Source: a bacterium (GTDB taxonomy: Bacteria > Patescibacteriota > Minisyncoccia > Phycocordibacterales > UBA2100). Taken from it: a stretch of 64,000 nt of DNA. Position 1 is the first letter of the stretch, and every line of letters starts with the position of its first letter. Both the position numbers and the translations under genes were made by a program. Shown one piece after another: positions 562-48,395 of this stretch. The DNA lies in contig JAUSHX010000013.1 in the NCBI GenBank assembly GCA_030648265.1, positions 3,030 through 67,029 of the forward strand, read 5' to 3'. The notes under the pieces are model-generated. The model was not told the origin of the DNA. It made no database searches and saw only the letters and a list, made by a program, of their open reading frames with translations.

Positions 562-680
562 TAAATCGCGCCAATCTACAAATTTATCCCAATCTACAAA
601 TGGCTACGAATTTGACGTGCGTTATTTGCGGATATTTGTAGTATTCGTATCATTCGCAGATTGGGACTTTGTTTTTCCCT
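562..680 (-). repeat. Family-2 intercistronic repeat (CCAATCTACAAAT ... ATTTGTAGATTGGG), copy 1 of 4
   Basis: Direct and inverted CCAATCTAC(A/G)AAT motifs plus TATTCGTAGCCATTCGTAGTATTCGTATCATTTGTAGATTGGGAC. It sits between the tsf start and the rpsB 3' end and overlaps the rpsB C-terminal codons. Confidence 0.75.
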
Positions 681-2648: not shown

Positions 2649-4055
2649 GTGAGTATGGTTAATGCAAAGAAAACTCTGTACGAAAAGATATGGGACGCTC
2701 ACGTGGTGCGAGAGGCTAAAGGCGAGCCCACTATATTGTATATAGACCTGCACCTGATACACGAGGTGACGACTCCGCAGGCATTCACCGGGTTGCACAA
2801 TCGGAAGTTGCCTGTCCGCCGCACTGACTTAACCATCGCGACCATGGACCATTCGGTTCCATCAATTAACCGAAAGAAACTGCCGTGGCCGGATGCGCTG
2901 GCGCAGAAGCAAGTGGGGATGCTCGCGGATAATTGCAAGAAATATGGTATCACGCTCTACGATTTGGACAGCAAACATCAGGGCATCGTGCACGTTATCG
3001 GGCCGGAGCTCGGCCTCACGCAGCCGGGAAAAACTGTCGTCTGCGGAGACAGCCACACTTCCACTCACGGCGCATTTGGCGCGCTCGCCTTCGGCATCGG
3101 CACATCGGAAGTGGAACACGTCCTCGCCACGCAGTGCCTCCTGCAGAACAAAACGAAAACGATGGCGATAATCATTAATGGCACGCTCCAGCCCGGCGTC
3201 TATTCCAAAGACATCATTCTGCGCATCATTCACGAGCTCGGGATTGCTGGCGGAATCGGCTACACGTTTGAGTACCGAGGTAGCGCCATACGCGCGCTCT
3301 CTATGGAAGCGCGCATGACCATCTGCAACATGAGCATTGAGGCCGGGGCGCGTGCGGGAATCATTGCGCCCGACCAAACGACAGTTGACTATCTGGAGAA
3401 GCGGGTGAAGTTCAAAAATGATTCCGAAAAAAAGAAGGCTATCGCTAGGTGGCTTTCGTGGCAAACCGACAAGGGAGCAAAGTTTGATAAAGAAATCGTC
3501 ATGGATGCGGCAACGATTGAGCCGATGGTCACATGGGGTACGAACCCCGGAATGTCCGTGGGCATCACCAAGAAAATACCTGATGGTGGCGGCGAAGATA
3601 TCAAGCAAGCTTTGGAATACATGGGGCTCCAAGGAGGGCAAAAGATGCGCGGCCAAAAAATAGACTATGTGTTTATGGGCAGCTGCACGAATTCCCGCAT
3701 TGAAGATTTGCGCGTTGAGGCAAGCATTATTAAAGGCAAGAAGATTGCGCCCGGCGTTACCTGCTACGTCGTACCCGGTTCATACGAGGTAAAACACAAA
3801 GCCGAGGCCGAAGGATTGGACAAAATATTCTTGTCGGCCGGATGTGAGTGGCGCGAACCCGGGTGCAGTATGTGCATCGGCATGAACGGCGACCTCGTGC
3901 CTTCGGGCAAATACTGCGCCTCCACTTCAAACCGCAACTTCATGGGCAGGCAGGGCAAGGGCGCCCGCACGCTCCTCATGTCGCCTGCGATGGCCGCCGT
4001 TGCCGCGATTGAAGGCGCTGTCGGAGACGCGCGAGAATATTTAGAAGATGTATGA
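2649..4055 (+). CDS. leuC: 3-isopropylmalate dehydratase large subunit
   Basis: Aconitase-family motifs: [17 protein letters not shown] and [11 protein letters not shown]. Confidence 0.95.
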
Positions 4056-4151
4056 GCGAAGCGAATTACATATTCTTAACCCAGCACCTTTCGCGAAAGG
4101 TGCTGGGCGCAAGTTGTTTCTAAACTCGGTTACTCGTTAAGAAAAACTAAT
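4056..4151 (+). repeat. Family-1 intercistronic palindromic element, copy 1 (only plus-strand copy)
   Basis: GCGAAGCGAATTACATATTCTTA-ACCCAGCACCTTTCG|CGAAAGGTGCTGGG-CGCAAGTTGTTTCTAAACTCGGTTACTCGTTAAGAAAAACTAAT-ATG. It fills the whole leuC-leuD spacer, and the leuC stop plus last codons (LEDV*) lie inside the conserved left arm. Confidence 0.85.
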
Positions 4152-4745
4152 ATGCGAACCTCACAATTCAAAGACTTAACCGCAACGCTCGCGCCATTAC
4201 TACGGGATAACGTGGACACTGACCAAATTATTCCCGCGCGTTACCTGACTGCCACCAATAAAAAAGGATTCGGCAAGCGGCTGTTCATGGATTTGCGCTA
4301 TGAGGAAGACGGAAAAACGCCGAGGCCGGATTTCGTCCTGAACCAAAAGAAATTCAAGGGCGCGAAAATCCTGCTCGGCCACAAAAATTTCGGCTGCGGC
4401 TCTTCCCGCGAACACGCTCCGTGGGCGCTTTTGGGGGCCGGATTTAATGCTGTTATCGCAATTTCATTCGCCGATATCTTCAGGAACAATTCGGCAAAAA
4501 ATGGACTGCTTCTAATTGAACTTCCGAGAAAAATAATAGACATGATGCACACCGAGGTTGTTGAGAATCCGAAAGAGAAAGCCGCTATCAACCTGAAGAA
4601 CCAAACAATAACGTGGAAAAAACAGGCTCATTCGTTCCCAATTAATCCATTCGTTAAGAGGTGCCTCATGGAAGGATTGGATGATATCGGCTACACTCTA
4701 AGCTTCGCAGACCAAATCAAGGCATACGAGCAAAAAACTAGATGA
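4152..4745 (+). CDS. leuD: 3-isopropylmalate dehydratase small subunit
   Basis: DNVDTDQIIPARYL, GCGSSREHAPWAL. Confidence 0.95.
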   Translation: MRTSQFKDLTATLAPLLRDNVDTDQIIPARYLTATNKKGFGKRLFMDLRYEEDGKTPRPDFVLNQKKFKGAKILLGHKNFGCGSSREHAPWALLGAGFNAVIAISFADIFRNNSAKNGLLLIELPRKIIDMMHTEVVENPKEKAAINLKNQTITWKKQAHSFPINPFVKRCLMEGLDDIGYTLSFADQIKAYEQKTR

Positions 4746-6496
4746 AAGATTCAAAGAAAAAATACCGCCCGTTCACTCCCGTAGATTTGAAGGACAGAAC
4801 GTGGCCGAATAAGACCATCACTCAAGCCCCCCGCTGGTGCTCGGTGGATTTGCGCGACGGCAATCAGGCGCTCGTCACGCCGATGAACCTTGAGCAGAAA
4901 TTGAACATGTTCAAACTGCTGGTGGACATCGGGTTCAAGGAAATTGAGGTCGGCTTCCCTTCCGCCTCGCAGGTTGAATTTGATTTTGTCCGCATACTTA
5001 TTGAACGCAAACTTATACCCCTAGATGTGACCGTCCAAGTGCTGACGCAAGCGCGCGAACACTTGATAGAAACCACGTGTCGTTCTCTTGTCGGCGCCAA
5101 GCGCGCGCTCATACACATGTACAATTCCACCTCGGAACTCCAGCGCCGCGTCGTATTCCGCATGGGCAAACCGGAAATTAAAGAGATGGCCGTCAAAGGC
5201 ACCGCATGGGTGCGGCAGTATAGCGAGAAATATCTGTCCTCCAAAGGAGGATCCGCCTCGGGCGGAAAAGCTACCGAGGTTCTGTACGAATACAGTCCCG
5301 AGAGTTTTATGGGCACCGAACTGGATTATGCCGTAGAGGTCTGCGATGCGGTCATTGAGGAATGGAAGCCGCGCGCGGGAGAGAAAGTCATCATCAATTT
5401 GCCCAACACGGTGGAAATGTCCACGCCCAACATTTACGCCGACCAGATAGAGTGGTTCTGCCGTCACTTCAAGTCGCGGGATAAGGCTATCATCAGTCTC
5501 CATGTGCACAACGACCGCGGATGCGCTGTCGCCGCGACGGAGCTCGGCATGATGGCGGGCGCAGAGCGCGTGGAGGGCACGCTCTTCGGCAACGGCGAGC
5601 GTACCGGCAACGTGGACATCATCACGCTCGCGCTCAACCTCCACACACAGGGCATTGACCCGCAACTGGATTTAAGCGATTTGGACCGTTGCATTGAGGT
5701 CTATCAATCCTGCACCGACCTTCCCGTGCATCCGCGCCACCCATACGCGGGAGAACTGGTCTTCACCGCATTTTCCGGCTCTCATCAGGACGCGATAGAC
5801 AAAGGGTTTCAGGCGATGAAGGATTCTGGGAAACCGCTGTGGGAAGTTCCCTACATTCCGATGGACCCGAAAGATGTCGGCCACACCTATGAGGCGGTAA
5901 TCCGCATCAACAGCCAGTCCGGCAAAGGCGGCGTCGCGCACATCCTGCGCAACGAGTTCGGATACAACACGCCGAAAGCGATGCACCCCGAATTGGGGAA
6001 AATGATTCAGCGCATTTCCGATGCGACCGGCAAAGAGGTGCTTCCCGGGGCAATACAAAAGGCGTTTGAAGACGAGTACCTGAATCGCTCAAGTCCAATC
6101 TCACTCCGGAGTTTCAAGATAAAAGACGAGAGTAGCGGGAAAGGCGATGTCACGACCCTCTCGGCGGTCATAAAAATGAATGGGAAGAAGCGTACGGTCA
6201 CAAGCACCGGCAACGGCCCGATTGACGCCTTCAGTAAAGCGCTGAAGCGTGCGGGCGCGGGACACTACAGTTTCCTCTCGTACGAGGAACACGCGCTTGG
6301 CAAAGGCGAGGACGCCCGCGCGGTCGCCTACATTCAGATTGCCGATGAAAAGGGCAACTCGTTTTTCGGTATCGGCACTGACTTCAATATCGTCGGCGCA
6401 TCTCTGCGCGCGCTCTTGAGCGCCTTGAATCGCTCGGAGCAATCTGCACAAAAAGTTAAGAGAGCCTCTCCGGCACGCGCCAAGAAGCGCCAATAA
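4742..6496 (+). CDS. leuA: 2-isopropylmalate synthase (long form, about 580 aa)
   Basis: RWCSVDLRDGNQALVTPMN, HVHNDRGCAVAATELG, and the C-terminal regulatory domain. Confidence 0.95.
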   Translation: MKDSKKKYRPFTPVDLKDRTWPNKTITQAPRWCSVDLRDGNQALVTPMNLEQKLNMFKLLVDIGFKEIEVGFPSASQVEFDFVRILIERKLIPLDVTVQVLTQAREHLIETTCRSLVGAKRALIHMYNSTSELQRRVVFRMGKPEIKEMAVKGTAWVRQYSEKYLSSKGGSASGGKATEVLYEYSPESFMGTELDYAVEVCDAVIEEWKPRAGEKVIINLPNTVEMSTPNIYADQIEWFCRHFKSRDKAIISLHVHNDRGCAVAATELGMMAGAERVEGTLFGNGERTGNVDIITLALNLHTQGIDPQLDLSDLDRCIEVYQSCTDLPVHPRHPYAGELVFTAFSGSHQDAIDKGFQAMKDSGKPLWEVPYIPMDPKDVGHTYEAVIRINSQSGKGGVAHILRNEFGYNTPKAMHPELGKMIQRISDATGKEVLPGAIQKAFEDEYLNRSSPISLRSFKIKDESSGKGDVTTLSAVIKMNGKKRTVTSTGNGPIDAFSKALKRAGAGHYSFLSYEEHALGKGEDARAVAYIQIADEKGNSFFGIGTDFNIVGASLRALLSALNRSEQSAQKVKRASPARAKKRQ

Positions 6497-6498
6497 TT

Positions 6499-7605
6499 AT
6501 GCGCGGAACGATCGCAGTCCTCGCTGGAGACGGCATCGGTCCGGAAATAATGGCTTCGGCTGTTCGCATTCTGGATGCGGTTAACGCGAAATTCGGCCAC
6601 ACATTTGAAACGAAGGAAGGTGTAACGGGCGGCGTCGCATACGATAAATTCGGCGTGCACCTGCCGGCAGAAACGGTTGAGATGTGCAAAAAGGCGGACG
6701 CGATTTTGTTCGGCGCCGTCGGTGGCCCCGTGTCCGATCAGGAATCCACGCGCTGGAAAGACGCCGAAAAGAACGTCATCCTCGGTTTGCGGGAGAAATT
6801 CAATTTGTTTGCCAACCTGCGCCCGCTCAAAGTGTGGCAAGGAACGGAATCCTTTAGCCCGCTTAAGCCGGACTTAATCGCAGGGATGGACGTGCTCATC
6901 GTGCGCGAGCTCATCGCGGGCATCTACTTCGGTCCCATGCGCCGGTACGAGGTTGACGGGGAAATAACCGCGGAGGAAACCAGCCGCTACACATGGAAAG
7001 AAATTGCGAGCGTCGTCCGCATCGCGTTCGTGGCCGCGCAAAAGCGCAGAAAAAAACTGACCATTGTGGATAAGGCGAATGTTCTTGAGACGTCGCGCCT
7101 GTGGCGTGATGTCACGCGCTTTATTCACGCAGAATTCCCCGACATTGCAATGGATTTTATGTTCGTGGACAACGCGGCCCAACAGCTCGTGCGCTCCCCC
7201 GCTTCGTTTGATGTCATCGCGACCGACAACATGTTCGGCGACATCTTGAGCGACCTCGGCGGCGCCGTCGTGGGCTCTCTCGGGCTCGTGCCCTCCGCGA
7301 GCATCTCCGCCAAAGTCGGATCCGCCTCCGGCGGAAACGCTCGAAGATTCGGCCTCTACGAGCCCGCGCACGGCTCCGCCCCCGACATCGCGGGCAAAAA
7401 TATTGCGAACCCGACCGCGCAAATCCTCTCACTCGCCATGCTCTTGCGCTACACATACGATTTAGACAAGGAAGCACAGGCGATTGAGGAAGCGGTTCTT
7501 TCGGCGTGGAAGGCGGGAAAGAAAACAAAAGACCTAGCGGCGAAGGGTGAAGAGATCCTTTCTACGGATGATTTCACATCTTGCGTGATAGAACAGTTAC
7601 AGTAA
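6499..7605 (+). CDS. leuB: 3-isopropylmalate dehydrogenase
   Basis: IAVLAGDGIGPEIM, NLFANLRP, DNMFGDILSD. Confidence 0.95.
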   Translation: MRGTIAVLAGDGIGPEIMASAVRILDAVNAKFGHTFETKEGVTGGVAYDKFGVHLPAETVEMCKKADAILFGAVGGPVSDQESTRWKDAEKNVILGLREKFNLFANLRPLKVWQGTESFSPLKPDLIAGMDVLIVRELIAGIYFGPMRRYEVDGEITAEETSRYTWKEIASVVRIAFVAAQKRRKKLTIVDKANVLETSRLWRDVTRFIHAEFPDIAMDFMFVDNAAQQLVRSPASFDVIATDNMFGDILSDLGGAVVGSLGLVPSASISAKVGSASGGNARRFGLYEPAHGSAPDIAGKNIANPTAQILSLAMLLRYTYDLDKEAQAIEEAVLSAWKAGKKTKDLAAKGEEILSTDDFTSCVIEQLQ

Positions 7606-7614
7606 GATGCGGGA

Positions 7615-8586
7615 ATGCAAGCAACAAAATACATTTGGTTCAACGGAAAGCTGGTTCCCTGGGCGAGCGCGAAAATTCACGTGCTTTCGCACTCTCTCCA
7701 CTACGGTACCGGCGCCTTTGAGGGCATCCGCATGTACGAGACCGAGAAGGGCTCGTCTACAGATGCCGACCATCAACCGGTCGGCCCTGCCATCTTCCAC
7801 CTGAAGCGACACATGGAGCGTCTTATATTCTCGGCGAAAAGCCTCGGGATGAAATTGCCATACACGCTGGACGAGCTCATGCAGGCGGTCGTGGAAACGG
7901 TGCGCAAAAACAAACTCAAGTCGTGCTATATCCGCCCGATTGCTTTCTTCGGTTTCGGCGAAGTGCGCGTGCTTCCCACCAACTGCCCCGTAGAGGTGGT
8001 AATCGCCGCGTGGCCGTGGGGCGCATATTTGGGCGACGAGCCCGCCCGCATCACCGTGGTAAAAACATTGCGCATCCATCCGCAGACTCTTAGAGTGAAT
8101 GCGAAAGTCTCCGGTCACTACGTGAATTCAATGCTCGCCGGCCGCGAGGCCACCGACCGCGGATTTACCGAGGCACTTCAATTGGACTATGAGGGCAACA
8201 TCGCCGAAGGGCCGGGAGAAAATTTCTTTATCGTCAAAGGCAAAACCATTTCCACGCCGAAGCTCGGTTCAATCTTGCCGGGCATTACGCGCGAATCCGT
8301 TATGACGCTCGCGCGCGACCTCGGCTACAAAGTGGTGGAGCGCACATTGACCATCAAAGATGCGCTTTCCGCCGATGAATGCTTCTTCACCGGCACCGCA
8401 GCGGAAGTGACGGCCATCGCCTCCATAGACAACAAGAAAATGAAGAAAGCGAATGGCTCGTCTACAGATGCCGATGCCTACTCCATCGGCCCAGTGACCA
8501 AACAAATCCGCGAAGAGTTCCTGAAAATCACCAGAGGAGAAAATCCGAGGTACAAAAAGTGGCTGACGTTCGTGAACGGATACTAG
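7615..8586 (+). CDS. ilvE: Branched-chain amino acid aminotransferase
   Basis: WFNGKLVPW...HSLHYGTGAFEGIRMYE and ECFFTGTAAEV. It carries two in-frame GSSTDAD mini-repeat insertions. Confidence 0.9.
   Translation: MQATKYIWFNGKLVPWASAKIHVLSHSLHYGTGAFEGIRMYETEKGSSTDADHQPVGPAIFHLKRHMERLIFSAKSLGMKLPYTLDELMQAVVETVRKNKLKSCYIRPIAFFGFGEVRVLPTNCPVEVVIAAWPWGAYLGDEPARITVVKTLRIHPQTLRVNAKVSGHYVNSMLAGREATDRGFTEALQLDYEGNIAEGPGENFFIVKGKTISTPKLGSILPGITRESVMTLARDLGYKVVERTLTIKDALSADECFFTGTAAEVTAIASIDNKKMKKANGSSTDADAYSIGPVTKQIREEFLKITRGENPRYKKWLTFVNGY
7749..7787 (+). repeat. In-frame intragenic mini-repeat (GGCTCGTCTACAGATGCCGAC-CATCAACC-GGTCGGCCC, encodes GSSTDADHQPVGP), copy 1 of 3
   Basis: Same 21-nt core as 8465-8503 and 16031-16067 with an internal 6-7 bp inverted repeat (GCCGACC/GGTCGGC). 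It is inserted between EKG and PAIF of ilvE relative to canonical IlvE. Confidence 0.7.
8465..8503 (+). repeat. In-frame intragenic mini-repeat copy 2 (encodes GSSTDADAYSIGP)
   Basis: GGCTCGTCTACAGATGCCGAT-GCCTACTCC-ATCGGCCCA. The stem is changed in a compensatory way (GCCGAT/ATCGGC). Confidence 0.65.
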
Positions 8587-8587
8587 A

Positions 8588-8637
8588 GCGCAAACGGCTC
8601 AATTACCGGTAATTGAGCCGTTTGCGCTCTTTTTTTT
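8588..8637 (+). terminator. Rho-independent terminator after ilvE
   Basis: GCGCAAACGGCTCAATTACCGGTAATTGAGCCGTTTGCGC followed by TTTTTTTT. Confidence 0.8.
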
Positions 8638-8668
8638 ATTGCAGTCTTTTGCAAAACACTAGCATAGA
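8638..8668. repeat. Family-3 palindrome (degenerate copy: GCAGTCTTTTGCAAAACACTAGC)
   Basis: Related to CCAGTGTTTTGCAAAACACTGG at 11569-11604 and 28291-28327. Confidence 0.5.
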
Positions 8669-8857
8669 AAAAGCCCAGCGTCGCAATCGCCGGGCCTTTC
8701 GAAATGGAACAAAAGTACAATTGGTTTGGCGGTCTTTGCCGCATTTCTCATCTCAGCGTCTGGGTCCGAGGGGTCAACCGTTCTTCCCCATGATGGTTGC
8801 CCCGCTTTCGGCAATCATTGCCTGCGCTTCGCGGTAGACCTTCGCAAGTCCGGCGAG

Positions 8858-11560: not shown

Positions 11561-11568
11561 CCCCGTTT

Positions 11569-11604
11569 CTCTATTCCAGTGTTTTGCAAAACACTGGAAT
11601 AGAG
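11569..11604. repeat. Family-3 perfect palindrome CTCTATTCCAGTGTTTTGCAAAACACTGGAATAGAG
   Basis: 36-bp palindrome just upstream of the 10379-11560 gene start. Confidence 0.7.
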
Positions 11605-12429: not shown

Positions 12430-14121
12430 CTAGATTTTCTTCTTACCTTCCATTGAGACACCCTGGGAAGCTACTCGTTTTGCATTCAGTTTGGATTCAC
12501 TGCCAATCTTGCGTAGCGCAACGGCTGCATTATTAGAAATAGATTTCATTTGTTCTGAGGCATCTCCAACAGAACCAAATATTAAAGCTCCCTTAATAAT
12601 ACGATGCATATGAACGCCACGTGCTTCCTTAAAAAGCCCGTAAAAATCATTTGAGGTCAACTTTGCTAGCATTTCAACATCTTCGGGATTCCAACCACGA
12701 TTCATGGCAATGCTTTCTAGCACTTGACCGGGGTCTCTGTCGTCAACAAAAGATTCGAGTTTTTCTTTAAAAGCTTTCGTCACGTCTGGGTCTTTCACCA
12801 TGTTACCAAACGCTGAGCGTTTTAGATCGTAGAGGTCTCTCTCTTCAGGACGTTTCTCAATATAGTGTTTTAGGAGCTGACGAGCTTGTTTAGTGCGACC
12901 AAATTCTTTCAGAAAAGAGACTGTGCCATCTAGGTTTGTAGGAGTAATAACGTCAACATTTTCCACAGCAGCATTATAAATACCATCTAGGACTTCTTTT
13001 TCACCAACACTAAAAGAATCGTGATATAGATCCCAGGCTTTACTAAATGAGCCATCTTTTTTATCACGCTTAAGTTTTTCACTTAGCTTAGCCGCCACTT
13101 TGTTTAGAGCATCAACATCAAAATATCCAAGACGAATCCCGTCTAGCACAACAAGATCAAATTCATCTGTCTGAAAAAACTGGTACGCACTTAGTAATGT
13201 TTGCCATAACTTCTCCTGTTTTGTGATTTTATCTCCACCCCTTTCCAAGTCAAAAATTGGACTGAAATTCTTAATAAAATCTAAAGACGGGGCAACCTTC
13301 GGCTCGTAAACGACCCACCCAAACAGCGTAGTGGAATGTAGAGCTTGATATAAAAGGTCGGGATACGTTTCTGAGAGTAATTCTTCCAACCTTCGAGCTA
13401 TTCGCTCTATCTTTTTGATAACTCTAATGTTGACGATGCCTAGAGATGTGCAGTTCTTGTGCAACAGACCATAAATGCCTTCTCGTGACGAAAAAACAAT
13501 GTCTGCCGCTTCCAGGGGAGATGGTTTAAATTCTAATACAGTATCAGTGACTTTCTCGAGTTGTTTCTTAAAGACCTCCTTATCTTCGGCAGAAAGCTCT
13601 TCGTCATTAAGCAGTAGAGCCACCTTGCACCCACGTTGTTCTTTGAGGAGAGAGATCATGCCTAACACATCAGTAGCTTTTAGATCCCCTCCGGCACGCT
13701 CAAGATCGTCAATACAAACTATTTGATTTCTAACGAGGAAAAATAAGGCTCGTTCCGAACCTGCAAGATAGGGTTGAAAGTTGGGGAACCTACTTAGAAA
13801 AACAACTCCCTTTCTATAATTTTTCTTTATCCAACGAAGTCCAGATTGCAGTGAGTTAATGTCCGGACCTCTGTCTATCTGCTCAACTTCAATAGTGTTT
13901 TCGAAGAGAGAAAATCTCAAGTCATCTAAACTCTTCTGCCCAAATAACGAGATGTACGAGTACCTACTTAGCCCGATCTCTTTGGTACTTAATGCCTCTT
14001 TTAGATAATGACCCCATGCGTAAGTTTTCCCCACTCCCCACTTACCTTTAATACATAGAACTTCAGGTTCTTTGCTGGCAAGAAAACGCTTTATTTCTTC
14101 GTGTACCAACTTGATTGACAT
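12430..14121 (-). CDS. KAP-family P-loop NTPase (563 aa), AT-rich and probably horizontally acquired
   Basis: Walker A region GKWGVGKTYAW and the KAP-type Walker B IVCIDDLERAG. GC content is clearly lower than the neighbouring genes. Confidence 0.55.
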   Translation of the reverse strand: MSIKLVHEEIKRFLASKEPEVLCIKGKWGVGKTYAWGHYLKEALSTKEIGLSRYSYISLFGQKSLDDLRFSLFENTIEVEQIDRGPDINSLQSGLRWIKKNYRKGVVFLSRFPNFQPYLAGSERALFFLVRNQIVCIDDLERAGGDLKATDVLGMISLLKEQRGCKVALLLNDEELSAEDKEVFKKQLEKVTDTVLEFKPSPLEAADIVFSSREGIYGLLHKNCTSLGIVNIRVIKKIERIARRLEELLSETYPDLLYQALHSTTLFGWVVYEPKVAPSLDFIKNFSPIFDLERGGDKITKQEKLWQTLLSAYQFFQTDEFDLVVLDGIRLGYFDVDALNKVAAKLSEKLKRDKKDGSFSKAWDLYHDSFSVGEKEVLDGIYNAAVENVDVITPTNLDGTVSFLKEFGRTKQARQLLKHYIEKRPEERDLYDLKRSAFGNMVKDPDVTKAFKEKLESFVDDRDPGQVLESIAMNRGWNPEDVEMLAKLTSNDFYGLFKEARGVHMHRIIKGALIFGSVGDASEQMKSISNNAAVALRKIGSESKLNAKRVASQGVSMEGKKKI

Positions 14122-14187
14122 ATCTCATATTCTACCTTTTTATCCCGAACCGGAGAAACTTCATTTTCGGACCCCGAAACTATTCAG

Positions 14188-14239
14188 CAAACATCTTCTG
14201 AAGCGCATAGAGAGATGAGCATGCACGGCAATCTAGCCG
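14188..14239 (-). pseudogene. Displaced paralogous copy of the sufU 3' end (encodes ARLPCMLISLCASEDVC*)
   Basis: About 85% identical to 15978-16031, which encodes the real SufU C-terminus ARLPCMLISLYALQKMFSEGR*. Confidence 0.6.
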
Positions 14240-14254
14240 AACTGACGGAGTAGG

Positions 14255-15963: not shown

Positions 15964-16374
15964 TTACCGGCCCTCGGAAAACATTTTCTGGAGAGCGTAG
16001 AGTGAGATGAGCATGCACGGCAATCTAGCCGGGCCGACCGGTCCATGGTCGGCATCTGTAGACGAGCCTATCTCTGCACTTATCAATTTTTGAATCTGCT
16101 TCGGGCCGATTGCTTTCAATTTTTTCACGGTTTTGCCGAGCATCCATTCCGTAAACATTGAACTGGAGGCGATGGACAGGGCGCATCCGGAACCGCTGAA
16201 GCGCACTTGTTCAACAATGCCCTTTTTATTTACCTTCAACTGCAAAAGGATTTTGTCGCCACACAACGGATTTTTTGCTTCCACTTTATATGTCGGGCGC
16301 TTCATCACACCAAAATTCTGCGGATTCCGGTAGTGCTCCATTATTTCCTCGCGGTATATGTCATTATTGTCCAT
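15964..16374 (-). CDS. sufU: SufU/IscU-like Fe-S scaffold protein (ORF in the track extends upstream; likely start at MDNNDIY)
   Basis: NPLCGDKILLQLKV...FSGSGCALSIASSSMFTE. It carries one in-frame GSSTDADHGPVG mini-repeat near its C-terminus. Confidence 0.8.
   Translation of the reverse strand: MDNNDIYREEIMEHYRNPQNFGVMKRPTYKVEAKNPLCGDKILLQLKVNKKGIVEQVRFSGSGCALSIASSSMFTEWMLGKTVKKLKAIGPKQIQKLISAEIGSSTDADHGPVGPARLPCMLISLYALQKMFSEGR
16031..16067 (-). repeat. In-frame intragenic mini-repeat copy 3 (encodes GSSTDADHGPVGP in sufU)
   Basis: The reverse complement reads GGCTCGTCTACAGATGCCGACCATGGACCGGTCGGCCC. Confidence 0.7.
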
Positions 16375-18272: not shown

Positions 18273-18388
18273 ATTTGTGTACCAATCAACGAATGTATTC
18301 CAATCTACAAATAACTACAAATGTTAAGCCCCGTATATTCGTAACCATTCGTAGTATTCGTATCATTTGTAGATTGGGACATACTTAT
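18273..18388 (-). repeat. Family-2 intercistronic repeat, copy 2
   Basis: CCAATCAACGAATGTATTCCAATCTACAAATAACTACAAATG...TATTCGTAACCATTCGTAGTATTCGTATCATTTGTAGATTGGGAC between sufB and sufD. Confidence 0.75.
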
Positions 18389-19793: not shown

Positions 19794-20606
19794 TTATTTG
19801 ATGTAGTCCCCGTAACCCTTCTTTTCTATGGCAGTCGCGAGCGTACTGGTTCCTGATTTTATGATTTTTCCTTTGTGCATTATGTGGACGCGGTCGGGCT
19901 TAATCCAGCGCAAAATGCGATTGTAGTGCGTGATGATTAGGAGAGTTACTCCGCGCGCGCGGAGTCGGGATATTTGTTTGGCAACAAGTTTGAGCGCGTC
20001 AATATCAAGTCCTGAATCAATTTCATCAATGACGATAAGTTGTGCGGGCAGGAGCGAAAGCTGGAGAATTTCCATTTTCTTTTTTTCTCCTCCGGAAAAC
20101 CCTTCGTTCAGAGAGCACGAGAGAAAATCTTTGGAAATCTTCAAAGTGTTTGCAGTGTCTTTAATTTCCTCCCTGAAATCCGCCATTTTGAAATCCTTGC
20201 CCTTCCCCTTGAAATTGCGGACAGCGGCTGTCAGAAGATTCGTTACTGAAACTCCGGAAACTGTTTGCGGATTCTGGAACGCGAGCAAAACTCCCGCGCG
20301 CGCAATTTCGTCGGTCTTCATCTTGGAAAGCATGTGCTTGCCGAATGTTATTGAGCCGCGGGAAATCTTGTACTGCGGATTCGCGAGCAGTGTGTTTCCG
20401 AGCGTTGACTTGCCGGAGCCGTTCGGCCCCATCAAGACGCAGGTCTGCCCCCTCCGCACGACAAGGTTGATGCCGTTCAAAATAGGATTCCCTGCCCCGC
20501 CGTGCCCCGTAGCCGCTTGCGTGGTACTGGGGTAGCCAGCGCGAAGCCCTGTGGTACTGGGGTTTTCAAGCCGTACATGGAGATTTTTTATAGTGAGGGT
20601 GGACAT
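19794..20606 (-). CDS. sufC: Fe-S cluster assembly ATPase SufC with an in-frame N-terminal insertion of about 25 aa
   Basis: GPNGSGKSTL, LSGGEKKKMEILQL, DEIDSGLDIDAL. The insertion PSTTGLRAGYPSTTQAATGHGGAGN is encoded by tandem CCCCAGTACCAC units at about 20480-20570. Confidence 0.9.
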   Translation of the reverse strand: MSTLTIKNLHVRLENPSTTGLRAGYPSTTQAATGHGGAGNPILNGINLVVRRGQTCVLMGPNGSGKSTLGNTLLANPQYKISRGSITFGKHMLSKMKTDEIARAGVLLAFQNPQTVSGVSVTNLLTAAVRNFKGKGKDFKMADFREEIKDTANTLKISKDFLSCSLNEGFSGGEKKKMEILQLSLLPAQLIVIDEIDSGLDIDALKLVAKQISRLRARGVTLLIITHYNRILRWIKPDRVHIMHKGKIIKSGTSTLATAIEKKGYGDYIK

Positions 20607-23374: not shown

Positions 23375-23752
23375 CTATTTTATAAGGGCCACACAGGAAA
23401 TTTCAATGAGCGCGTTCTTCGGCAATGCTGATACGCCAACTGTGGCGCGAGCTGGTTTGTGCTCGCCAAATGTTTCTGCATACACCTCATTCATGTCTTT
23501 AAAATCATTTATATCGCGCAGGTAGATGTTCACGCTCGCGACCGAATCAAAACCAACTCCCGCGGCTTGAAGAACTTCCTCAAGATTCTTAAATATCTGC
23601 TCGGTCTGCTCTTTGATTCCGCCTTTTACAAACTCCCCCGTTGCGGGGTCAGTAGGAATCTGACCCGAGCAAAAAACCAGATTTCCTGCCACAACCGCCT
23701 GCGAATACGGCCCTATTGCTTTTGGTGCCTTATCTGTGTGAATTGGCTTCAT
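23375..23752 (-). CDS. ridA: RidA/YjgF-family enamine/imine deaminase
   Basis: PKAIGPYSQAV...PARATVGVSALP..ALIEISCVA. Confidence 0.85.
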   Translation of the reverse strand: MKPIHTDKAPKAIGPYSQAVVAGNLVFCSGQIPTDPATGEFVKGGIKEQTEQIFKNLEEVLQAAGVGFDSVASVNIYLRDINDFKDMNEVYAETFGEHKPARATVGVSALPKNALIEISCVALIK

Positions 23753-23912
23753 GTTAGAGATTCTTAGCGAATGATAATGAGATTAGAAGCTCTTACACCC
23801 AGCACCTTTGTTTCATTGAGAAACGAAGGTGCTGGGTCAAGAATATGTAATTCGCTCTGCTCATAACATCTTCTAGACATTACTACAGAGGTTATGCGTT
23901 GACAATGTTTTA
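23753..23912 (-). repeat. Family-1 element, copy 2
   Basis: CATGTTAGAGATTCTTAGCGAATGATAATGAGATTAGAAGCTCTTAC-ACCCAGCACCTTTGTTTCATTGAGAAACGAAGGTGCTGGGT-CAAGAATATGTAATTCGCTCTGCTCATAAC. Fills the trpF-ridA spacer. Confidence 0.85.
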
Positions 23913-28247: not shown

Positions 28248-28290
28248 TGGAACCATTCGCGCGAATTAGACAATGCAGAAATGCTCGTTT

Positions 28291-28327
28291 TCTTATTCCA
28301 GTCTTTTGCAAAACACTGGAATAGACA
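28291..28327. repeat. Family-3 palindrome (CCAGTCTTTTGCAAAACACTGG)
   Basis: Third copy of the TTTTGCAAAA-centred palindrome. Confidence 0.6.
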
Positions 28328-28773: not shown

Positions 28774-29859
28774 TCACGAGTTTTGCGCCTTGTTGCGCAG
28801 ATAGTGATCCATGATGACCAGCGCGGACATCGCGTCCACTATCGGAATCGCTCGCGGAAGGACGCACGGGTCGTGGCGGCCGGAGGCTTCTAGCTTGGTT
28901 GCCTCGCCTCCTTTTTTCACCGTGTCTTGCTCTTTCTTGATGGTTGAAACCGGCTTGAATACAACGCGGAAGTGAATTGTTTCCCCGCTTGAAATCCCGC
29001 CAATCGTACCGCCCGCGTTGTTCGTCTTTGTGTGTATTGTGCCATCCTTATCGGTGTAGAACGGGTCATTGTGTTCGCTCCCGCGCATGCCGACGCTCCG
29101 GAAGCCGAGCCCAATATCAAATCCCTTGACCGCATTGATTGAAAGCATCGCTTTCCCAAGGTCTGCATTGAGTTTATCAAACACCGGCTCGCCCAAACCA
29201 ACCGGGACATTCCGTATGACGCCTCTCACGACCCCGCCCACAGAATCGCCCTCAGATTTCACCTTTTCAACAAGCGCAATCATTTTTTCTGCCGATTTCT
29301 GGTCTGGGCAGCGGATGATATTTGATTCCACATCTTTCGCCGTGACCGTATTAAAATCCACGTCCGCGTGTATATCGCCGACTTGGTCCACGTAGCTGAT
29401 GATTTCTATGCCCAGCTTCTCTTTAAGGTATTTCTGCGCAATCGCACCCGCGGCGACGCGCGCAAGCGTCTCTCGCGCGGAAGCGCGCCCGGACCCCCTC
29501 CAGTCGCGGGCACCGTACTTCGCCTCGTAGGTGAAATCGGCATGCGACGGGCGGTACAAATCTTTGAGAGCCAGATAATCTTCGGGTTTTGTGTCTTCAT
29601 TGAGCACCATCATGAGAACCGGCGTACCCGTGGTCTTTCCCTCAAAGTAGCCGGAAAGAATATGAATTTTGTCCGCCTCTTTTCGGGGAGTCGTTATTTT
29701 ACTTTGCCCCGGGCGCCGCCTATCAAGCGCCACTTGAATTTCCTCCTCCGTTATCTCAATCCCCGGAGGGCACCCATCAACTACAACACCAACAGCCCCG
29801 CCATGCGATTCGCCGAATGTCGTTATCCGAAAGAGTTGTCCGAATGAATTTCCCGCCAT
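28774..29859 (-). CDS. aroC: Chorismate synthase
   Basis: [34 protein letters not shown]. Confidence 0.9.
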
Positions 29860-30028
29860 GTTAGATTTTGTTAACGAATGTAATGAGTTTAGAAAATCTT
29901 ACACCCAGCACCTTTCATGCATATTCTACCACTTAATCTGCGAATACCAGCTGTTGTTTGTGATTTAAATATAGCATCTGCCTAACGTTAAAGGTGCTGG
30001 GTTATAGAAAATATAGTCGCTTTGCTCC
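29860..30028 (-). repeat. Family-1 element, copy 3 (78-nt loop)
   Basis: ...TCTTAC-ACCCAGCACC-[loop]-GGTGCTGGGT-TATAGAAAATATAGTCGCTTTGCTCCTTATTTTC. Confidence 0.85.
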
Positions 30029-31846
30029 TTATTTTCTTATAACAACCCCTCTCTCCTGCAACTTTGCCACTATCTGCTCCACCGCGTGCTCCGGGGGCGC
30101 ACTTTCAGTGTCTATCGTCTCGTCAGCGGCCGCTTCGTAGAGCCCTGCCCTCTCCGCGAGCATTTTTTCCATCTCTTCCTGCGGTGTCGTCCCGGTAGTG
30201 AGTGCCGGCCGGTGAGAATCATCCTCCTCCATTCTGCTCAAAAGTATTTGAAGCGTTGCGCGCAGAAATATACACAGGCCGTTTTTCTTGACCGTCTCAA
30301 TGTTCTCCGAACGCGTGATAATCCCGCCTCCGGTAGAAATGACGGCGCCATTCTGCTCGGACACCTCGCGAATCATGTCGGATTCCAAATCCCTGAAATG
30401 GTCCCATCCAGATTTCTCCACGATATCCTTGATGCTCATGCCCGCTTTTTTTGCAACGAGTGAATCAATATCTTCGCATCTCTTTCCGAGGCGCTTCGCG
30501 AGAAGCCGAGCGACGGTCGTCTTCCCGCTCCCGCGCATGCCAATGAGAACAATGTTCGGGTCGCGCTCTGAAGTTGTGGTTTTAATGCCGATAGAATTCA
30601 ATTTCTCCCAGAACTCAGGAAATGTTTTCGTAACAACGTCAGGATTCCTTATTTCCATTCCTTGCATCTTGGTTCCTAAAACAGCGAATGCCATGGCCAT
30701 CCGGTGGTCCCAGTAGGTGTCTATGACCGCCGGTTTTGGATATCCTCCGTAAATCGTCATCGTGTCGGGGGTAGATTCGGAACGTATGCCCATTTTCGCG
30801 AGCTCTCTCTCAAGCGCCTCAACGCGCTCGGTTTCTTTCACCCGCAAGGAGCCGACTCCGGCAATATGAGTGGTCCCCGATACGCAGGCAGAAAGCGCGG
30901 CAAGCGTTTGAACCTGGTCCGGACAATCTTGCATGTTTATATCAACCGGCTTGATTCCGCGGCCTTGAATCGTTATTTGATTGTCGCCGTACTCAACCTC
31001 GTTCCCCATGTCGGCAAGGATTTTGAGGAATCCCATGTCGGCTTGCACCGATTTCGGGTTCATGTTTTTGAGCGTGATGCGCGATTGTGTAAGTGCGGCG
31101 ATAGCAAAGAAATATGAAGCGCTAGACGCATCACCCTCAACAATGTATTCATCAAGACCGTATTTTTGCCCTGCTGGAACGGCATAGGTGGATGCATCGG
31201 GAACTTCAACCTTCACGCCGAACCGCTTCATTGAATCAATGGTCATGTCAATATACGGCTTTGAGATTTGCTCGCCGATGACCTCAATATTCACTTCGCC
31301 GACCACGGGGGCAATCATGAGAATGGCCGAGAGGAATTGGCTGCTGACGGAGCCGTTCATCGTTATGGTGCCTGGGGTGAGTTTTGAGGAAGAGACGCGC
31401 ACCGGAGGAAATCCTTCTTTTTCAAGATATTCTATTTTTGCTCCGAGCTGGCGGAGAGCATTTACAAGGTCCCCGATTGGACGCTCATTCAAACGCCCCT
31501 CTCCCTGAATCGTCTTCTCTCCGGCAACAATGGAGGCAAGCGCGAGAATAAATCTGATGGTCGTGCCGGAAAGGTGCGCGTTGAGGTCGTACGAATTGTC
31601 AGCGACTGCGCGAATGTCTCCGGCGACTTCCAAATCGCCACCCTTTGAGACGACCTTGATTCCAAGCGTCTGAAGACAATCAATCATCGCCTTTGTGTCA
31701 TCGCTCACAAGCGGATTCTTTATCCGTACCGTTTTACCGACGAGTGCCGCCATAAGGAGCGCTCTGTTGGTGTAACTCTTGGAACCCGGAACAGAAATAG
31801 TAGCGTCTATGGGTTTCTCAAGCGGAAAAATCTTCGTTGTTTTCAT
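30029..31846 (-). CDS. aroA: Bifunctional EPSP synthase (AroA) fused to C-terminal shikimate kinase (AroK)
   Basis: The N-terminal 430 aa carry EPSP synthase motifs (PGSKSYTNRALL, domain repeats). The C-terminal 170 aa carry NIVLIGMRGSGKTTVARLLAKRLG. Confidence 0.85.
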   Translation of the reverse strand: MKTTKIFPLEKPIDATISVPGSKSYTNRALLMAALVGKTVRIKNPLVSDDTKAMIDCLQTLGIKVVSKGGDLEVAGDIRAVADNSYDLNAHLSGTTIRFILALASIVAGEKTIQGEGRLNERPIGDLVNALRQLGAKIEYLEKEGFPPVRVSSSKLTPGTITMNGSVSSQFLSAILMIAPVVGEVNIEVIGEQISKPYIDMTIDSMKRFGVKVEVPDASTYAVPAGQKYGLDEYIVEGDASSASYFFAIAALTQSRITLKNMNPKSVQADMGFLKILADMGNEVEYGDNQITIQGRGIKPVDINMQDCPDQVQTLAALSACVSGTTHIAGVGSLRVKETERVEALERELAKMGIRSESTPDTMTIYGGYPKPAVIDTYWDHRMAMAFAVLGTKMQGMEIRNPDVVTKTFPEFWEKLNSIGIKTTTSERDPNIVLIGMRGSGKTTVARLLAKRLGKRCEDIDSLVAKKAGMSIKDIVEKSGWDHFRDLESDMIREVSEQNGAVISTGGGIITRSENIETVKKNGLCIFLRATLQILLSRMEEDDSHRPALTTGTTPQEEMEKMLAERAGLYEAAADETIDTESAPPEHAVEQIVAKLQERGVVIRK

Positions 31847-33496: not shown

Positions 33497-34959
33497 GTTT
33501 GCGAAGCACCGAGGACTTTTTTCATTGCCGCTGATTTGTTTTGGATTTCCACGTATTCCTTCTTCGGTACGGAATCGTACACGATGCCTCCGCTTGTTTG
33601 CGTGTATGCGTCAGTGCCTGCGATAAAAACGGAGCGCAATGCAAGCGCGAACGTGCAATCGCCGTTAAACCCGAAATGTCCGACGCCTCCTCCATAGGGC
33701 CCCCGCGCCTCCTTCTCGTTAGCATCTATTATTTTTATCGTCTCTATCTTTGGCGTACCGCACACCGTTCCCATCGGAAACTGGCTCGCAAAACCGGAAA
33801 ACATATCTTCCTCGGGGCGGATGGTTCCCACCACCTCGCTTGAGATGTGCTGGACATGGCTGAATTTCTTCACGGTCATCAAATCGCGTATCTTTACGGT
33901 CCCGAATTTTGCCACTTTTCCGATGTCATTCCTGTGCAAGTCCACAAGCATATTGTGCTCCGCGCGCTCTTTTTCATCGTTCACGAGCTCGCGGGCTAGC
34001 TCTTGGTCCTCCTTAGGGTTCGCGCCTCGGCGAATCGTTCCCGCGAGCGGGCGCGTCGTCATTTCTCCGTCACGCAAAGAGAACAGGAGCTCAGGGCTCG
34101 CGCCGATGATTTTTTTACTTTGGAATTTAAGATAGTACATAAACGGCGATGGATTGATTTCGCGCAACCGTTCGTAAATCCCGACCGTGTCGCCGGTTAT
34201 CTTATACTTCGTCTTGAACCCGACCTCGCACTGAAACGTTTTTCCTTCTCTGATTTTTTCTTTCACATCCTCAACGATTTTCGCATGTTCCGCTTCCGAA
34301 AGACCTTCGTCTATACACTCCGCACTAAACGGCGCGGCCTCAATTTCTGACGCAATAATTTCTTTTAGAACCGCGCTTCTATCCTCGTCGTAGAAGAAAT
34401 ATGTAAGTTCGCCGGTCAGTTTATCTAGAATAAGTCCGTCCGTGTAAACGCCAAAAAGGAACTGGTCAAATTTTTCGTGCACCTTCACGTTTAGCGAGGG
34501 CTCCATGAGGTTAATCGCCTCGTAACTTAAATATCCAACGAGCCCCCCGTCGTAATTTCTTCCAATGGTGCGCTGCGGCATGATATCGCGCAGTGCGTAG
34601 TACGGATTCGGAACGGAATAGCTTGTGCCGTCAACGGTTAATTTGTTTCCTCTCCCTCCGATTAAATGCGCCGGTTCAAATCCGATTATGGAATAGCGGG
34701 AGAATTTCCCTTCCTCTCCCAACGACTCAAAAATAAAGCATGTGTCAAACCGGCGTTCTATTTTCTTGAACAAATCAAAAAACACTACGCCATCCGCAAG
34801 TTTGACGTATGTTGGCTTCTGCGAGATATGTATTTTCGGTAGGCTCGCCCCGTTAGAAATAGGACGCGCGTCCATAAAAGACGAGTCTTGGTTATGTTTT
34901 TTTGTTGTCATATGTTTTGTTGATGTGTCGCGTCCGCGATTTCTAATGGGGTTTTTCAT
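33493..34959 (-). CDS. trpE: Anthranilate synthase component I
   Basis: Chorismate-binding C-terminal motifs (GGGVGHFGFNGDCTFALALRS). Confidence 0.9.
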   Translation of the reverse strand: MKNPIRNRGRDTSTKHMTTKKHNQDSSFMDARPISNGASLPKIHISQKPTYVKLADGVVFFDLFKKIERRFDTCFIFESLGEEGKFSRYSIIGFEPAHLIGGRGNKLTVDGTSYSVPNPYYALRDIMPQRTIGRNYDGGLVGYLSYEAINLMEPSLNVKVHEKFDQFLFGVYTDGLILDKLTGELTYFFYDEDRSAVLKEIIASEIEAAPFSAECIDEGLSEAEHAKIVEDVKEKIREGKTFQCEVGFKTKYKITGDTVGIYERLREINPSPFMYYLKFQSKKIIGASPELLFSLRDGEMTTRPLAGTIRRGANPKEDQELARELVNDEKERAEHNMLVDLHRNDIGKVAKFGTVKIRDLMTVKKFSHVQHISSEVVGTIRPEEDMFSGFASQFPMGTVCGTPKIETIKIIDANEKEARGPYGGGVGHFGFNGDCTFALALRSVFIAGTDAYTQTSGGIVYDSVPKKEYVEIQNKSAAMKKVLGASQT

Positions 34960-35103
34960 GTTAGGGATTCTTAGCGAGCGATAGCGAGATTAGAAGCTCT
35001 TACACCCTGTTAAATGCGATTCTTCGAGTCGCCCCGCCCTTGGCGGGATTTAACAGGGTTAAGAATATGTAATTCGCTTCGCTCATAACATTTTCTAAAC
35101 AAA
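34960..35103 (-). repeat. Family-1 element, copy 4, with alternative stem ACCCTGTTAAAT/ATTTAACAGGGT
   Basis: Conserved arms (…GAGATTAGAAGCTCTTAC / TTAAGAATATGTAATTCGCTTCGCTCATAAC), but both halves of the stem are replaced by a different complementary pair. Immediately upstream of trpE. Confidence 0.85.
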
Positions 35104-46199: not shown

Positions 46200-46385
46200 A
46201 TCTTAGATTTAATTAGTGAGCGAAGCGAGCTTAGTAAATCTTAGACCCAGCACCACTTTTGAACTCCAGCAGTTCTTGCCGATGAGTTCTGGCTGTGATT
46301 GCTTTCGGTAGTTTTGCATAATTATCATAAGTTTCAAAAGTGGTGCTGGGTAAGTAAAATATAGTCGCTTTGCTCCTTATTTTAT
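46200..46385 (-). repeat. Family-1 element, copy 5 (stem ACCCAGCACCACTTTTGAA / TTCAAAAGTGGTGCTGGGT)
   Basis: Conserved arms. The loop is related to copy 15. Confidence 0.85.
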
Positions 46386-46724
46386 TTAGAATTGAAGTCC
46401 GGCGGTGCGCGCGGCATCAGCAAACGCTTTTATCGTTCCCTGGTACTGGAACCCGCCGCGGTCAAACACGACGGCCTTGATTCCTTTTTTGCCCGCGAGG
46501 GAGGCAAGAGTACCCGCGGCCGCTTCCGCGCGCTCTTTGGGAGTCTTTCCCTTCGCGTCATCGGACGATATGGCGGCGAGAGTCACCCCCTTCGCGTCAT
46601 CAATGAGCTGGGCGATAAGGCGCGTGTTTGATTTGTATACCGAGAGGCGCGGGCGCTGTTCCGTGCCGATGACCTTGGCGCGGACGCGGCGGTGCCTGCG
46701 TATTCTGTTATCTTGTTTTGTCAT
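46386..46724 (-). CDS. rplR: 50S ribosomal protein L18
   Basis: RLSVYKSNTRLIAQLIDD. Confidence 0.9.
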   Translation of the reverse strand: MTKQDNRIRRHRRVRAKVIGTEQRPRLSVYKSNTRLIAQLIDDAKGVTLAAISSDDAKGKTPKERAEAAAGTLASLAGKKGIKAVVFDRGGFQYQGTIKAFADAARTAGLQF

Positions 46725-46836
46725 GTTAGTTTTTCTTAACGAGTGATAACGAGTTTAGAAACAACTTACACCCAGCACCTTTCGCGAAAGGTGCTGGGTA
46801 AAGAAATAGTAATTCATTTCATTCATAACGATTTCA
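46725..46836 (-). repeat. Family-1 element, copy 6 (fully palindromic core ACCCAGCACCTTTCGCGAAAGGTGCTGGGT)
   Basis: Fills the rplF-rplR spacer from the stop codon to the start codon. Confidence 0.9.
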
Positions 46837-47382: not shown

Positions 47383-47650
47383 GTTAGTTTTTCTTAACGA
47401 CCGAGCACTTTCTGACGATGCAGGTCTGAATAACTGTTTTAATGTTCCTTTTCGTGTTCATGTTTTTATAATCAATTAGCTTCTGAAAGTGCTCGGGGGT
47501 TTAGAAACAACTTACACCCAGCACCTTTAACGTACAGAATGCCGCGGGTTGGCGGAGTGTATTCCTTTGCGTTGTGCTTGATAAGTAAGTTCATATTGCT
47601 GGAAAAGGTGCTGGGTAAGTAAAATATAGTCGCTTCGCTCCTTATTTTAC
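47383..47650 (-). repeat. Family-1 element, copy 7, with a second hairpin (CCGAGCACTTTC...GAAAGTGCTCGG) nested in its arm
   Basis: Conserved arms. An extra 95-nt hairpin sits at about 47404-47500. Confidence 0.8.
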
Positions 47651-48353: not shown

Positions 48354-48395
48354 ATCAGATTTTGTTACGAGCGAAGCGAGTTAGAAAATCTTATA

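Follow-up and report, generated by a model that had tools for sequence, protein, structure and literature searches.

Short repeats within ilvE and a sufU-like gene

We analysed a stretch of 64,000 nucleotides (64 kb) from contig JAUSHX010000013.1 of assembly GCA_030648265.1, referred to below as the window, in which a first-pass annotation had noticed one short repeat twice in the branched-chain aminotransferase gene ilvE and once in sufU, an Fe-S scaffold gene. The observation was borne out, since the 20-mer GGCTCGTCTACAGATGCCGA matched the window at three places, 7750(+), 8455(+) and 16068(-), and shuffled versions of the window gave no match. A covariance model of the repeat (R1) scored these three copies, and nothing else in the 64 kb, above 50 bits, with all other segments at or below 10 bits. 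The host genes and the copies are as follows.

7615-8586, + strand: ilvE, branched-chain aminotransferase of 323 amino acids (301 in relatives), host of copies 1 and 2
7753-7785, + strand: unit copy 1, 33 nt, in ilvE; covariance-model score 52.2 bits
8458-8490, + strand: unit copy 2, 33 nt, in ilvE; 54.7 bits
15964-16374, - strand: NifU_N-type Fe-S scaffold gene (sufU/iscU-like, called sufU below), 136 amino acids from the ATG at 16374, host of copy 3
16033-16065, - strand: unit copy 3, 33 nt, in the sufU/iscU-like gene; 51.6 bits

Each unit consists of a conserved, unpaired 12-nt tag, TCGTCTACAGAT (also written YCGTCYACAGRT), followed by a 21-nt hairpin of the form GCCGAnn-7 nt-nnTCGGC, which has a 7-bp stem and a 7-nt loop. 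Given with their flanks, the copies read GGC-TCGTCTACAGATGCCGACCATCAACCGGTCGGC-CCT for copy 1, GGC-TCGTCTACAGATGCCGATGCCTACTCCATCGGC-CCA for copy 2 and, on the minus strand, GGC-TCGTCTACAGATGCCGACCATGGACCGGTCGGC-CCG for copy 3. The tag of copy 1 is TCGTCTACAGAT at 7753-7764 and its hairpin, at 7765-7785, is GCCGACC-ATCAACC-GGTCGGC; the translation, SSTDADHQPVG, stands between the host codons GGC (7750-7752) and CCT (7786-7788). The hairpin of copy 2 is GCCGATG-CCTACTC-CATCGGC, and its translation SSTDADAYSIG comes directly ahead of the invariant GP of GPVTK. Copy 3 has the hairpin GCCGACC-ATGGACC-GGTCGGC and translates as SSTDADHGPVG, which stands four residues upstream of the Cys of PARLPC. 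All three copies are in sense orientation and use one common frame, giving SSTDAD-xxxx-G.

Copies 1 and 3 share the stem GCCGACC/GGTCGGC, and copy 2 has GCCGATG/CATCGGC. The inverted repeat is thus changed in a compensatory way in copy 2, as had been noticed in the first pass, and the change extends over two base pairs. The size and one position needed correction. The unit is exactly 33 nt and adds 11 residues, not 36-39 nt and 12-13 residues, the flanking G and P being those of the host gene. The three locations stood in general, but the second ilvE copy, previously placed at 8465-8503, was 10 nt off and lies at 8455-8492 with its GGC and CC flanks, with a core of 8458-8490. Predicted hairpin stability is -7 to -8 kcal/mol as DNA and -9.4 to -12.5 kcal/mol as RNA. 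Every window variant has an identical copy at another locus (loci retrieved from other genomes and metagenomes carry L numbers): the 33-mer of copy 1 recurs unchanged in L012, that of copy 2 in L011, L016, L037 and L046, and that of copy 3 between genes in L014.

Empty sites define exact 33-nt insertions

The window was aligned at the DNA level with two syntenic relatives, L038 (a Kaiserbacteria contig of 141 kb) and L042 (GCA_964359415). In L038 all three sites were empty, and in L042 ilvE site 2 was filled and the other two were empty. Every gap, at ilvE site 1, ilvE site 2 and sufU, was exactly 33 nt, or 11 codons. The empty sites read AAG GGT^CCC, AAT GGT^CCT and AT(T/C) GG(A/C)^CC(T/A), where the caret marks the insertion point, which at the window sites separates the Gly codon from the Pro codon of GGN^CC. 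In the filled ilvE site 2 of L042 the codon to the left of the unit is GGT and the last three bases of the unit are GGC (GGT-unit..GGC-CC). This difference indicates that the unit is TCGTC...TCGGC, placed after the Gly codon without target-site duplication. A fourth site was found in sufS of L007, which carries an exact 33-nt insert of a second subfamily (described below) relative to the window, L038 and L042.

Comparison of the proteins agreed with the DNA alignments. The IlvE homologues P0002-P0008, 88-94% identical to the window protein, lack both segments, P0002 and P0003 being the closest at 94%, and P0001 has the C-terminal segment only. SufU homologues P0126-P0139, which are among the closest compared, are likewise orthologues without the insert residues, and the solved structures of IlvE and SufU have no counterpart of the inserts. 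Alignment with orthologues, which had been suggested as a check, therefore found the residues missing both from distant proteins and from the closest ones, in agreement with the first-pass view of insertion rather than ancestral sequence. Together, the clean 33-nt gaps in close relatives show that units were inserted in frame at two sites of ilvE and in sufU.

A family of hairpins with free sequence and fixed pairing

Scans of species-representative genomes and of metagenome contigs, one of each, found the same design in about 35 further places. The hosts are Kaiserbacteria metagenome-assembled genomes (MAGs), Nomurabacteria MAGs, MAGs classified no further than 'bacterium' and groundwater metagenome contigs. 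In all, the family comprises 29 distinct sites and 21 distinct exact-tag variants from Patescibacteria and groundwater contigs.

Across 20 distinct variants, all 140 of 140 stem cells are standard pairs, with one G-U pair among the conserved stem pairs. The two upper stem pairs, 18-28 and 19-27, covary (UA/CG/UG and GC/AU/CG); none of 500 shuffles reached the observed value, and the slid controls collapsed. The loop is 7 nt long, or 6 nt in one variant, and the sole variant whose length is not divisible by three (32 nt) is intergenic. When the fetched loci were searched with model R1, a second subfamily with the tag CCGTCTACAGGT was found, together with whole-stem swaps to GTCTATC/GATAGAC, GTCGACC/GGTCGAC, GCCTGTC/GACAGGC and GCAGATC/GATCTGC. 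Protein search recovered six sufU alleles, in which the tag shows no variation at synonymous positions.

Units also occur in head-to-tail arrays without spacer, with at least four units in L017, two in L024 and a long and a short form in L004, and one symmetric copy is present in L027. The two-unit array of L024 (L024:1120-1270) lies about 40 nt downstream of the apparent 3' end of a tRNA gene (GGTTCGAATCTCCCCCTGCCCACAACA).

No match to the unit was found in plasmid and phage collections. Two doubtful matches in viral contig scans were rejected, one for its 5-6-bp stem and the other for a wrong tag. Against Rfam 15 the window had no match at the gathering score, the region 7700-8550 giving a single chance-level match (E = 7.5), and a protein search with the concatenated SSTDAD peptide returned nothing at E <= 10.

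Coding and intergenic settings

Most of the 29 distinct sites fall between genes, and the unit there points either way relative to its neighbours. One intergenic type is lodged within a terminator-like hairpin, in its left arm (AACGGC^TCA...TGAGCCGTT). Four copies (L002, L007, L014 and L028) abut an element resembling a MITE (miniature inverted-repeat transposable element) with CGTC(T/A)TTGCGAGCG termini, and this element was not found in the window.

Inside genes the unit is read in two frames. Frame 1 gives SSTDAD.. in ilvE, in sufU and directly after the start codon of a copA-like gene. Frame 2 gives RLQ(M/V).. in sufS of L007 (RLQVSTIDRST) and three times in a 383-amino-acid open reading frame (ORF) of L004 (ARLQMP..). 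Intergenic copies, the second frame and the stem covariation together indicate that the conserved entity is a nucleic acid and not a peptide. Nucleic-acid-level selection, which the first-pass annotation had read from the window copies alone, thus gains support from a hairpin kept by compensatory change over 20 variants, among intergenic and other-frame copies. Such selection need not involve a function for the host, since the copy in L045 is degraded and close relatives differ in whether they carry the unit.

Within genes, every verified copy runs in the sense direction, has a length of 33 or 60 nt and is open, with no stop in the sense frames. On the antisense strand every copy has a stop in one frame, and many copies have one in a second frame. 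These antisense stop codons are enough to explain the sense bias inside genes.

The 29 sites also revealed a target preference. On the left flank, 20 of 29 have C at -4, 28 of 29 a purine at -3, and 8 of 29 GGC at -3 to -1; on the right, the first base is C in 19 of 29 and the first two are CC in 8 of 29. The left flank is thus often similar to the 3' end of the unit itself, (T)CGGC, a likeness that would also yield head-to-tail arrays.

Turnover at the sufU site and its relic

The sufU site was followed by protein search, which carries no bias towards the DNA motif. It was filled in six lineages and empty in many that are equally close. Three short versions occupy it: HGPV in the window, the same as the intergenic copy of L014; AYSI in L037 and L046, the same as copy 2 of the window's ilvE; and VHSI in L018. 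The copy in L045 carries three substitutions that break the stem, within flanks almost identical to those of L037. The sufU gene at L044:102-590 holds a 60-nt long form; apart from this it scarcely differs from the L018 gene, which has the short form. The long form, with 27 extra nt (CGAATCAGCAGAKTYCGTGGCTTGGCC) between tag and hairpin, is also found at L004:2323-2382. In ilvE, the nearer homologues P0002 and P0003 are without both units, while the more distant P0001 has one. In neighbour-joining trees of SufU and SufS, filled and empty alleles interleave, the trees being star-like and weakly resolved. These results show that the unit is gained, lost or replaced faster than its host genes diverge.

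A trace of an older occupation lies at lower window coordinates than sufU.

14180-14254, - strand: pseudo-copy of the sufU 3' end, starting with the unit's 3' half (CCTACTCC..GGC), AYSI-type

This relic comes directly after the stop codon of a peptidoglycan-binding-protein gene, so that this gene has a copy of the sufU 3' end on either side. The duplicated sufU segment has its left edge at the unit's 5' end. The relic is common to the window, L038 and L046, and L011 holds a complete unit there. Since the half unit is found in the relics of the window, L038 and L046, the sufU site was occupied before these lineages split. Repeated insertion, precise loss and allelic recombination are all possible sources of the patchy presence.

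The inserts in the proteins

Structure modelling of IlvE, another check suggested in the first pass, gave a result in line with surface loops. The AlphaFold model of the window protein has a mean pLDDT (predicted local distance difference test score) of 79.6, with most of the core around the inserts confident. The inserts, at residues 46-56 and 281-291, are modelled as coil; pLDDT falls below 50 in part of each (46-49 and 285-288) and is higher in their remaining residues. Both IlvE sites and the SufU site lie directly ahead of an invariant or near-invariant Gly-Pro. The predicted structure thus fits inserts that form surface loops. Most likely, the intragenic copies are neutral passengers and not functional additions to IlvE or SufU.

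A probable mobile element as the source of the repeats

Sharp ends, coding and non-coding sites, arrays, patchiness and decay are the behaviour of a small non-autonomous mobile repeat. We think it likely that the repeats are copies of such an element, of the repetitive extragenic palindromic (REP) type, built from a tag and a hairpin in 33 nt. The stem can vary in sequence as long as its pairing is kept, and the alignments show that the unit goes into DNA as a block of exactly 33 nt that leaves the target unduplicated. In this proposal it would be mobilised in trans, by an enzyme able to recognise the tag together with the folded hairpin on single-stranded DNA. Genic copies would persist only where they are harmless, that is, with a length of 3n and no stop in the sense frame. 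The commonest reading, SSTDADxxxxG, is hydrophilic, and the in-frame GGN CCN encodes Gly-Pro, a typical turn, so that the 11 residues could be accommodated as a surface loop.

A conserved single-stranded tag beside a hairpin fixed in pairing and free in sequence is the design that HUH or Y1-type nucleases recognise, as in the REP/RAYT (REP-associated tyrosine transposase) and IS200/IS605 systems. By this analogy, we take an enzyme of this kind as the most likely mechanism among those considered, with a probability for this specific step that is still below one half.

The 5.9-kb island of L025, which encodes a type III restriction-modification system (Mod, Res), a TnsA-like endonuclease and a helix-turn-helix protein and adjoins a large serine recombinase, was considered as a transposon with units at its ends. 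Two inverted units lie one in each of the inverted repeats of at least 195 nt that flank it (L025:7118-7312 and 13231-13425), an arrangement that is probably incidental, and there was no evidence from this island that its genes move the 33-nt unit.

Several points weigh against a REP-like mobile element. Forty window ORFs compared with Pfam included no transposase or integrase and were biosynthetic, ribosomal or otherwise unrelated. A tblastn search of 424 kb, a small part of any genome, with IS200 and IS608 TnpA gave no match, and was a weak test with approximate queries. The unit has one hairpin, compared with two in IS200/IS605-type elements, and head-to-tail arrays are rare in the REP families described. 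The tag hardly varies among the copies, but most loci were retrieved by exact match to it, which biases the set; the unbiased set, the sufU alleles found by protein search, has n=6. Copy numbers, as counted on contigs, were 0-3 per 20-64 kb and five in 8 kb of L007. Finally, the patchy presence could have come from strain-to-strain homologous recombination rather than transposition, the trees being short and weakly resolved.

A more far-reaching version of the mobile-element proposal is speculative, and we hold it to be rather unlikely. It takes the unit as an active, site-selective 33-nt homing element that repeatedly enters, leaves or overwrites GGN^CC (Gly-Pro) sites of essential genes by means of a so far unknown enzyme, as one of several families that remodel the surface loops of housekeeping proteins in the reduced genomes of the candidate phyla radiation (CPR). 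If this were true, it would provide a REP-like element with exact ends, a target and empty sites for working out how REPs move.

Alternative explanations

The best surviving alternative needs no dedicated enzyme. Copies would spread and be exchanged through host recombination and replication errors, by ectopic gene conversion or template switching between one another. These events would start from microhomology that GGC-containing targets share with the unit's 3' end (..CGGC), and slippage would give rise to the arrays. The resemblance of the left flank to the unit's 3' end is what this process would leave, and so are the variants at one site that are identical to copies elsewhere and the replacement of short by long form between L018 and L044. 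The lack of a transposase among 40 window ORFs (Pfam) and in the 424 kb searched by tblastn with approximate queries also speaks for it, as do the unrelated hairpin inserts in neighbouring genes. However, about 60% of the sites have no GGY on the left, and 3-4 nt of microhomology is very short for the repeated production of exact 33-nt blocks. Furthermore, a conserved 12-nt unpaired tag joined to a stem conserved in structure only is a signature of protein recognition. We consider enzyme-free spread of this kind unlikely.

Slightly less probable still is a cis-element kept by the host, which could serve as a site for DNA binding or as an RNA hairpin that influences ribosome pausing or the stability or processing of mRNA. 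In its favour are the perfectly conserved stem, with covariation and one G-U pair, the invariance of the tag at synonymous positions in the six sufU alleles, and the sense orientation of all verified intragenic copies. This last point loses its force because sense bias is expected anyway from the antisense stops, and the intergenic copies are found in both orientations relative to transcription. In addition, presence varies among very close relatives, in essential genes, the stem is broken in L045, and there is no Rfam match. A tRNA-like or terminator function was considered and rejected, the loops being unlike those of tRNA and a U-tract being absent.

A protein-level module, in which SSTDADxxxxG would be a peptide under selection that enzymes have acquired, is very improbable and largely refuted. 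The use of one frame in ilvE (twice), sufU and the N-terminus of the copA-like protein, and the hydrophilic nature of the peptide, are in its favour. However, the same DNA is read as RLQ(M/V).. in L007 sufS and the L004 ORF and is common in non-coding DNA, and covariation in the variable part follows the stem rather than the peptide. An assembly or sequencing artefact, for which no point in favour was found, has a negligible chance of being the explanation, given that the unit recurs in assemblies made independently in several projects and from several samples (NCBI MAGs, JGI, ENA, Logan), with structured variation and reading frames that stay open.

Other inserts and repeats in the window and its relatives

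The window and its relatives hold further inserts and repeats. A second family of in-frame mini-inserts, 30 nt long, lies in leuA at 5237-5266(+) and in leuB at 7306-7335(+), and also at 58092-58106. Two 15-nt hairpins (TCCNCC..GGNGGA) make up this insert, which encodes S[SA]K[GV]GSASGG and is not in leuA or leuB of L038 and L042. A similar insert, SSxGGSxSGG, is found at another position in the IlvE homologues P0023, P0031 and P0033. In sufC, a 72-nt in-frame insert at 20490-20561(-) consists of two tandem hairpin units starting CCCAGTACCAC (PSTTGLRAGY PSTTQAATGHG GAG), of which L038 has one and L046 none.

Compared with L042, rpsB (ribosomal protein S2) contains a 51-nt hairpin-forming and a 36-nt insert (1195-1245 and 634-669(-)). 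The 36-nt insert belongs to a repeat family with CCAATCTACAAAT/ATTTGTAGATTGG, which also occurs at 571-669, 18277-18386, 52393-52502 and 52700-52809. In L042 itself, leuA (7046-8788) has a 21-nt perfect-palindrome insert, ATGCCCTGCCTGCCGGCAGGC (NALPAGR), and sufS and sufB have long hairpin-rich N-terminal extensions with common CTAACGGGGCC motifs.

Within the ribosomal-protein operon (S5, L6, L5, S3, L2, L4, L3; about 46200-58500), a palindromic repeat of 90-190 nt occupies many spacers, an unusual feature in an operon whose genes are as a rule closely packed. It has the core ACCCAGCACCTTT...AAAGGTGCTGGGT and the flanks TTAGAAA..CTTA and GAGCGAAGCGA, and is also listed at 4040-4155, 23750-23875, 29855-30035 and 34955-35100. 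Two paralogous PaaX_M (Cas2-like) ORFs lie inside the ribosomal-protein cluster in opposite orientation, at 49699-50283(+) and 58780-59343(-), and their similarity is reflected in a 128-nt inverted repeat (50111-50238 / 58819-58946).

The palindrome TTCCAGTNTTTTGCAAAACACTGGAATAGA is located at 8626-8668, 11561-11603 and 28283-28325, in short intergenic spacers near gene ends, for example just downstream of ilvE, and could act as a common terminator or represent a further repeat family. Collagen-like GXY repeats, seen in the DNA as a repeat with a 9-nt period, are encoded by ORFs at 60847-61488 and 63367-63876(-).

Comparison with known systems

RPE-1, a Rickettsia palindromic element (RPE), is about 100-150 bp long (30-50 residues) and forms a long imperfect palindrome. 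By this description the unit, with 33 nt and one small hairpin, is set apart from RPE-1, which it resembles as a selfish palindromic repeat in frame in essential genes and translated as a surface segment. The first-pass annotation had compared the repeat with Rickettsia palindromic elements while assigning it to a different sequence family; the analogy stands for the REP class, which includes RPE-4 and RPE-6, and the likeness to RPE-1 does not.

With IS200/IS605 single-strand transposons, their miniature derivatives, the palindrome-associated transposable elements (PATEs), and REP/RAYT, the unit shares a hairpin with an adjacent single-stranded motif and possibly precise loss. Its biased left flank and lack of duplication are compatible with the way in which IS200/IS605-derived miniature elements insert, 3' of a fixed tetra- or pentanucleotide and without duplicating it. 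Unlike the unit with its one hairpin, those elements are bounded by two, one per end, and a gene for the Y1 transposase lies somewhere in the genome. The unit also differs from a MITE, since its only inverted repeat is the internal hairpin and it has neither terminal repeats nor a target-site duplication. It recalls the translational bypass elements of T4 gene 60 and the mitochondrial byps in being a short hairpin insert in coding DNA, and the window copies have GGC both before and at the end of the insert. Bypass was rejected, however: no stop follows the take-off codon GGC, many copies lack matched codons, and the genic copies are all open and 3n long, properties that a bypassed insert would not need.

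The closest parallel is with REPs, which are 20-40-bp hairpins with an unpaired GTAG or CGTC tag and complementary stem variants (Di Nocera, De Gregorio & Rocco 2013, PMC3733652). They are numerous in a genome, dispersed, mostly intergenic and often head-to-head dimers, and their in-frame genic copies, which are occasional and include RPE-4 and RPE-6 of Rickettsia conorii and copies in Opitutus terrae, add about 10-30 residues to housekeeping genes (PMC3733652). The unit agrees with them in its 33 nt, its short hairpin with an unpaired terminal tag, its complementary stem variation and its in-frame copies inside some genes; of the 29 sites found on the contigs searched, most are intergenic, as REPs are. 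The likeness to the CGTC and GTAG classes is partial: the tag starts with YCGTC and contains CTAC (GTAG on the other strand), but CGTC is 7 nt from the stem of the unit, in a tag of 12 nt, whereas the tetranucleotide of described REPs abuts the stem. Four CGTC REP families have a stem of 8-9 bp starting with AT, a loop of 4-5 nt and a 3-nt tail (CCA), and CGTC REPs have no known dedicated transposase (PMC3733652). The unit, in contrast, has a 7-bp stem closed by G-C, a 7-nt loop and no tail of its own, the CC after it being the host's Pro codon, as the empty sites demonstrate. Its multimers are head-to-tail, not head-to-head, and its hosts are Patescibacteria, a phylum outside that survey. A full-text literature search found no paper that links REPs to the CPR in this sense.

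For the bacteria themselves, these findings mean that Kaiserbacteria-type organisms, even with their small genomes, tolerate several families of palindromic mini-inserts in core enzymes (ilvE, sufU, sufS, sufC, leuA, leuB and rpsB). Such inserts inflate the apparent divergence of proteins and could pass for lineage-specific functional loops.

How REPs spread is still argued, and their ends and targets are mostly undefinable because empty sites are missing in most genomes. Here, four sites with empty and filled alleles in close relatives fix the length at 33 nt, exclude a duplication and indicate a target preference, so that the exact boundaries and the target are set by empty sites, unlike those of most REPs. 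The kind of event is already known from intragenic REPs such as RPE-4 and RPE-6; what is new is the sequence family, the host group, the head-to-tail habit and the precisely defined insertion.

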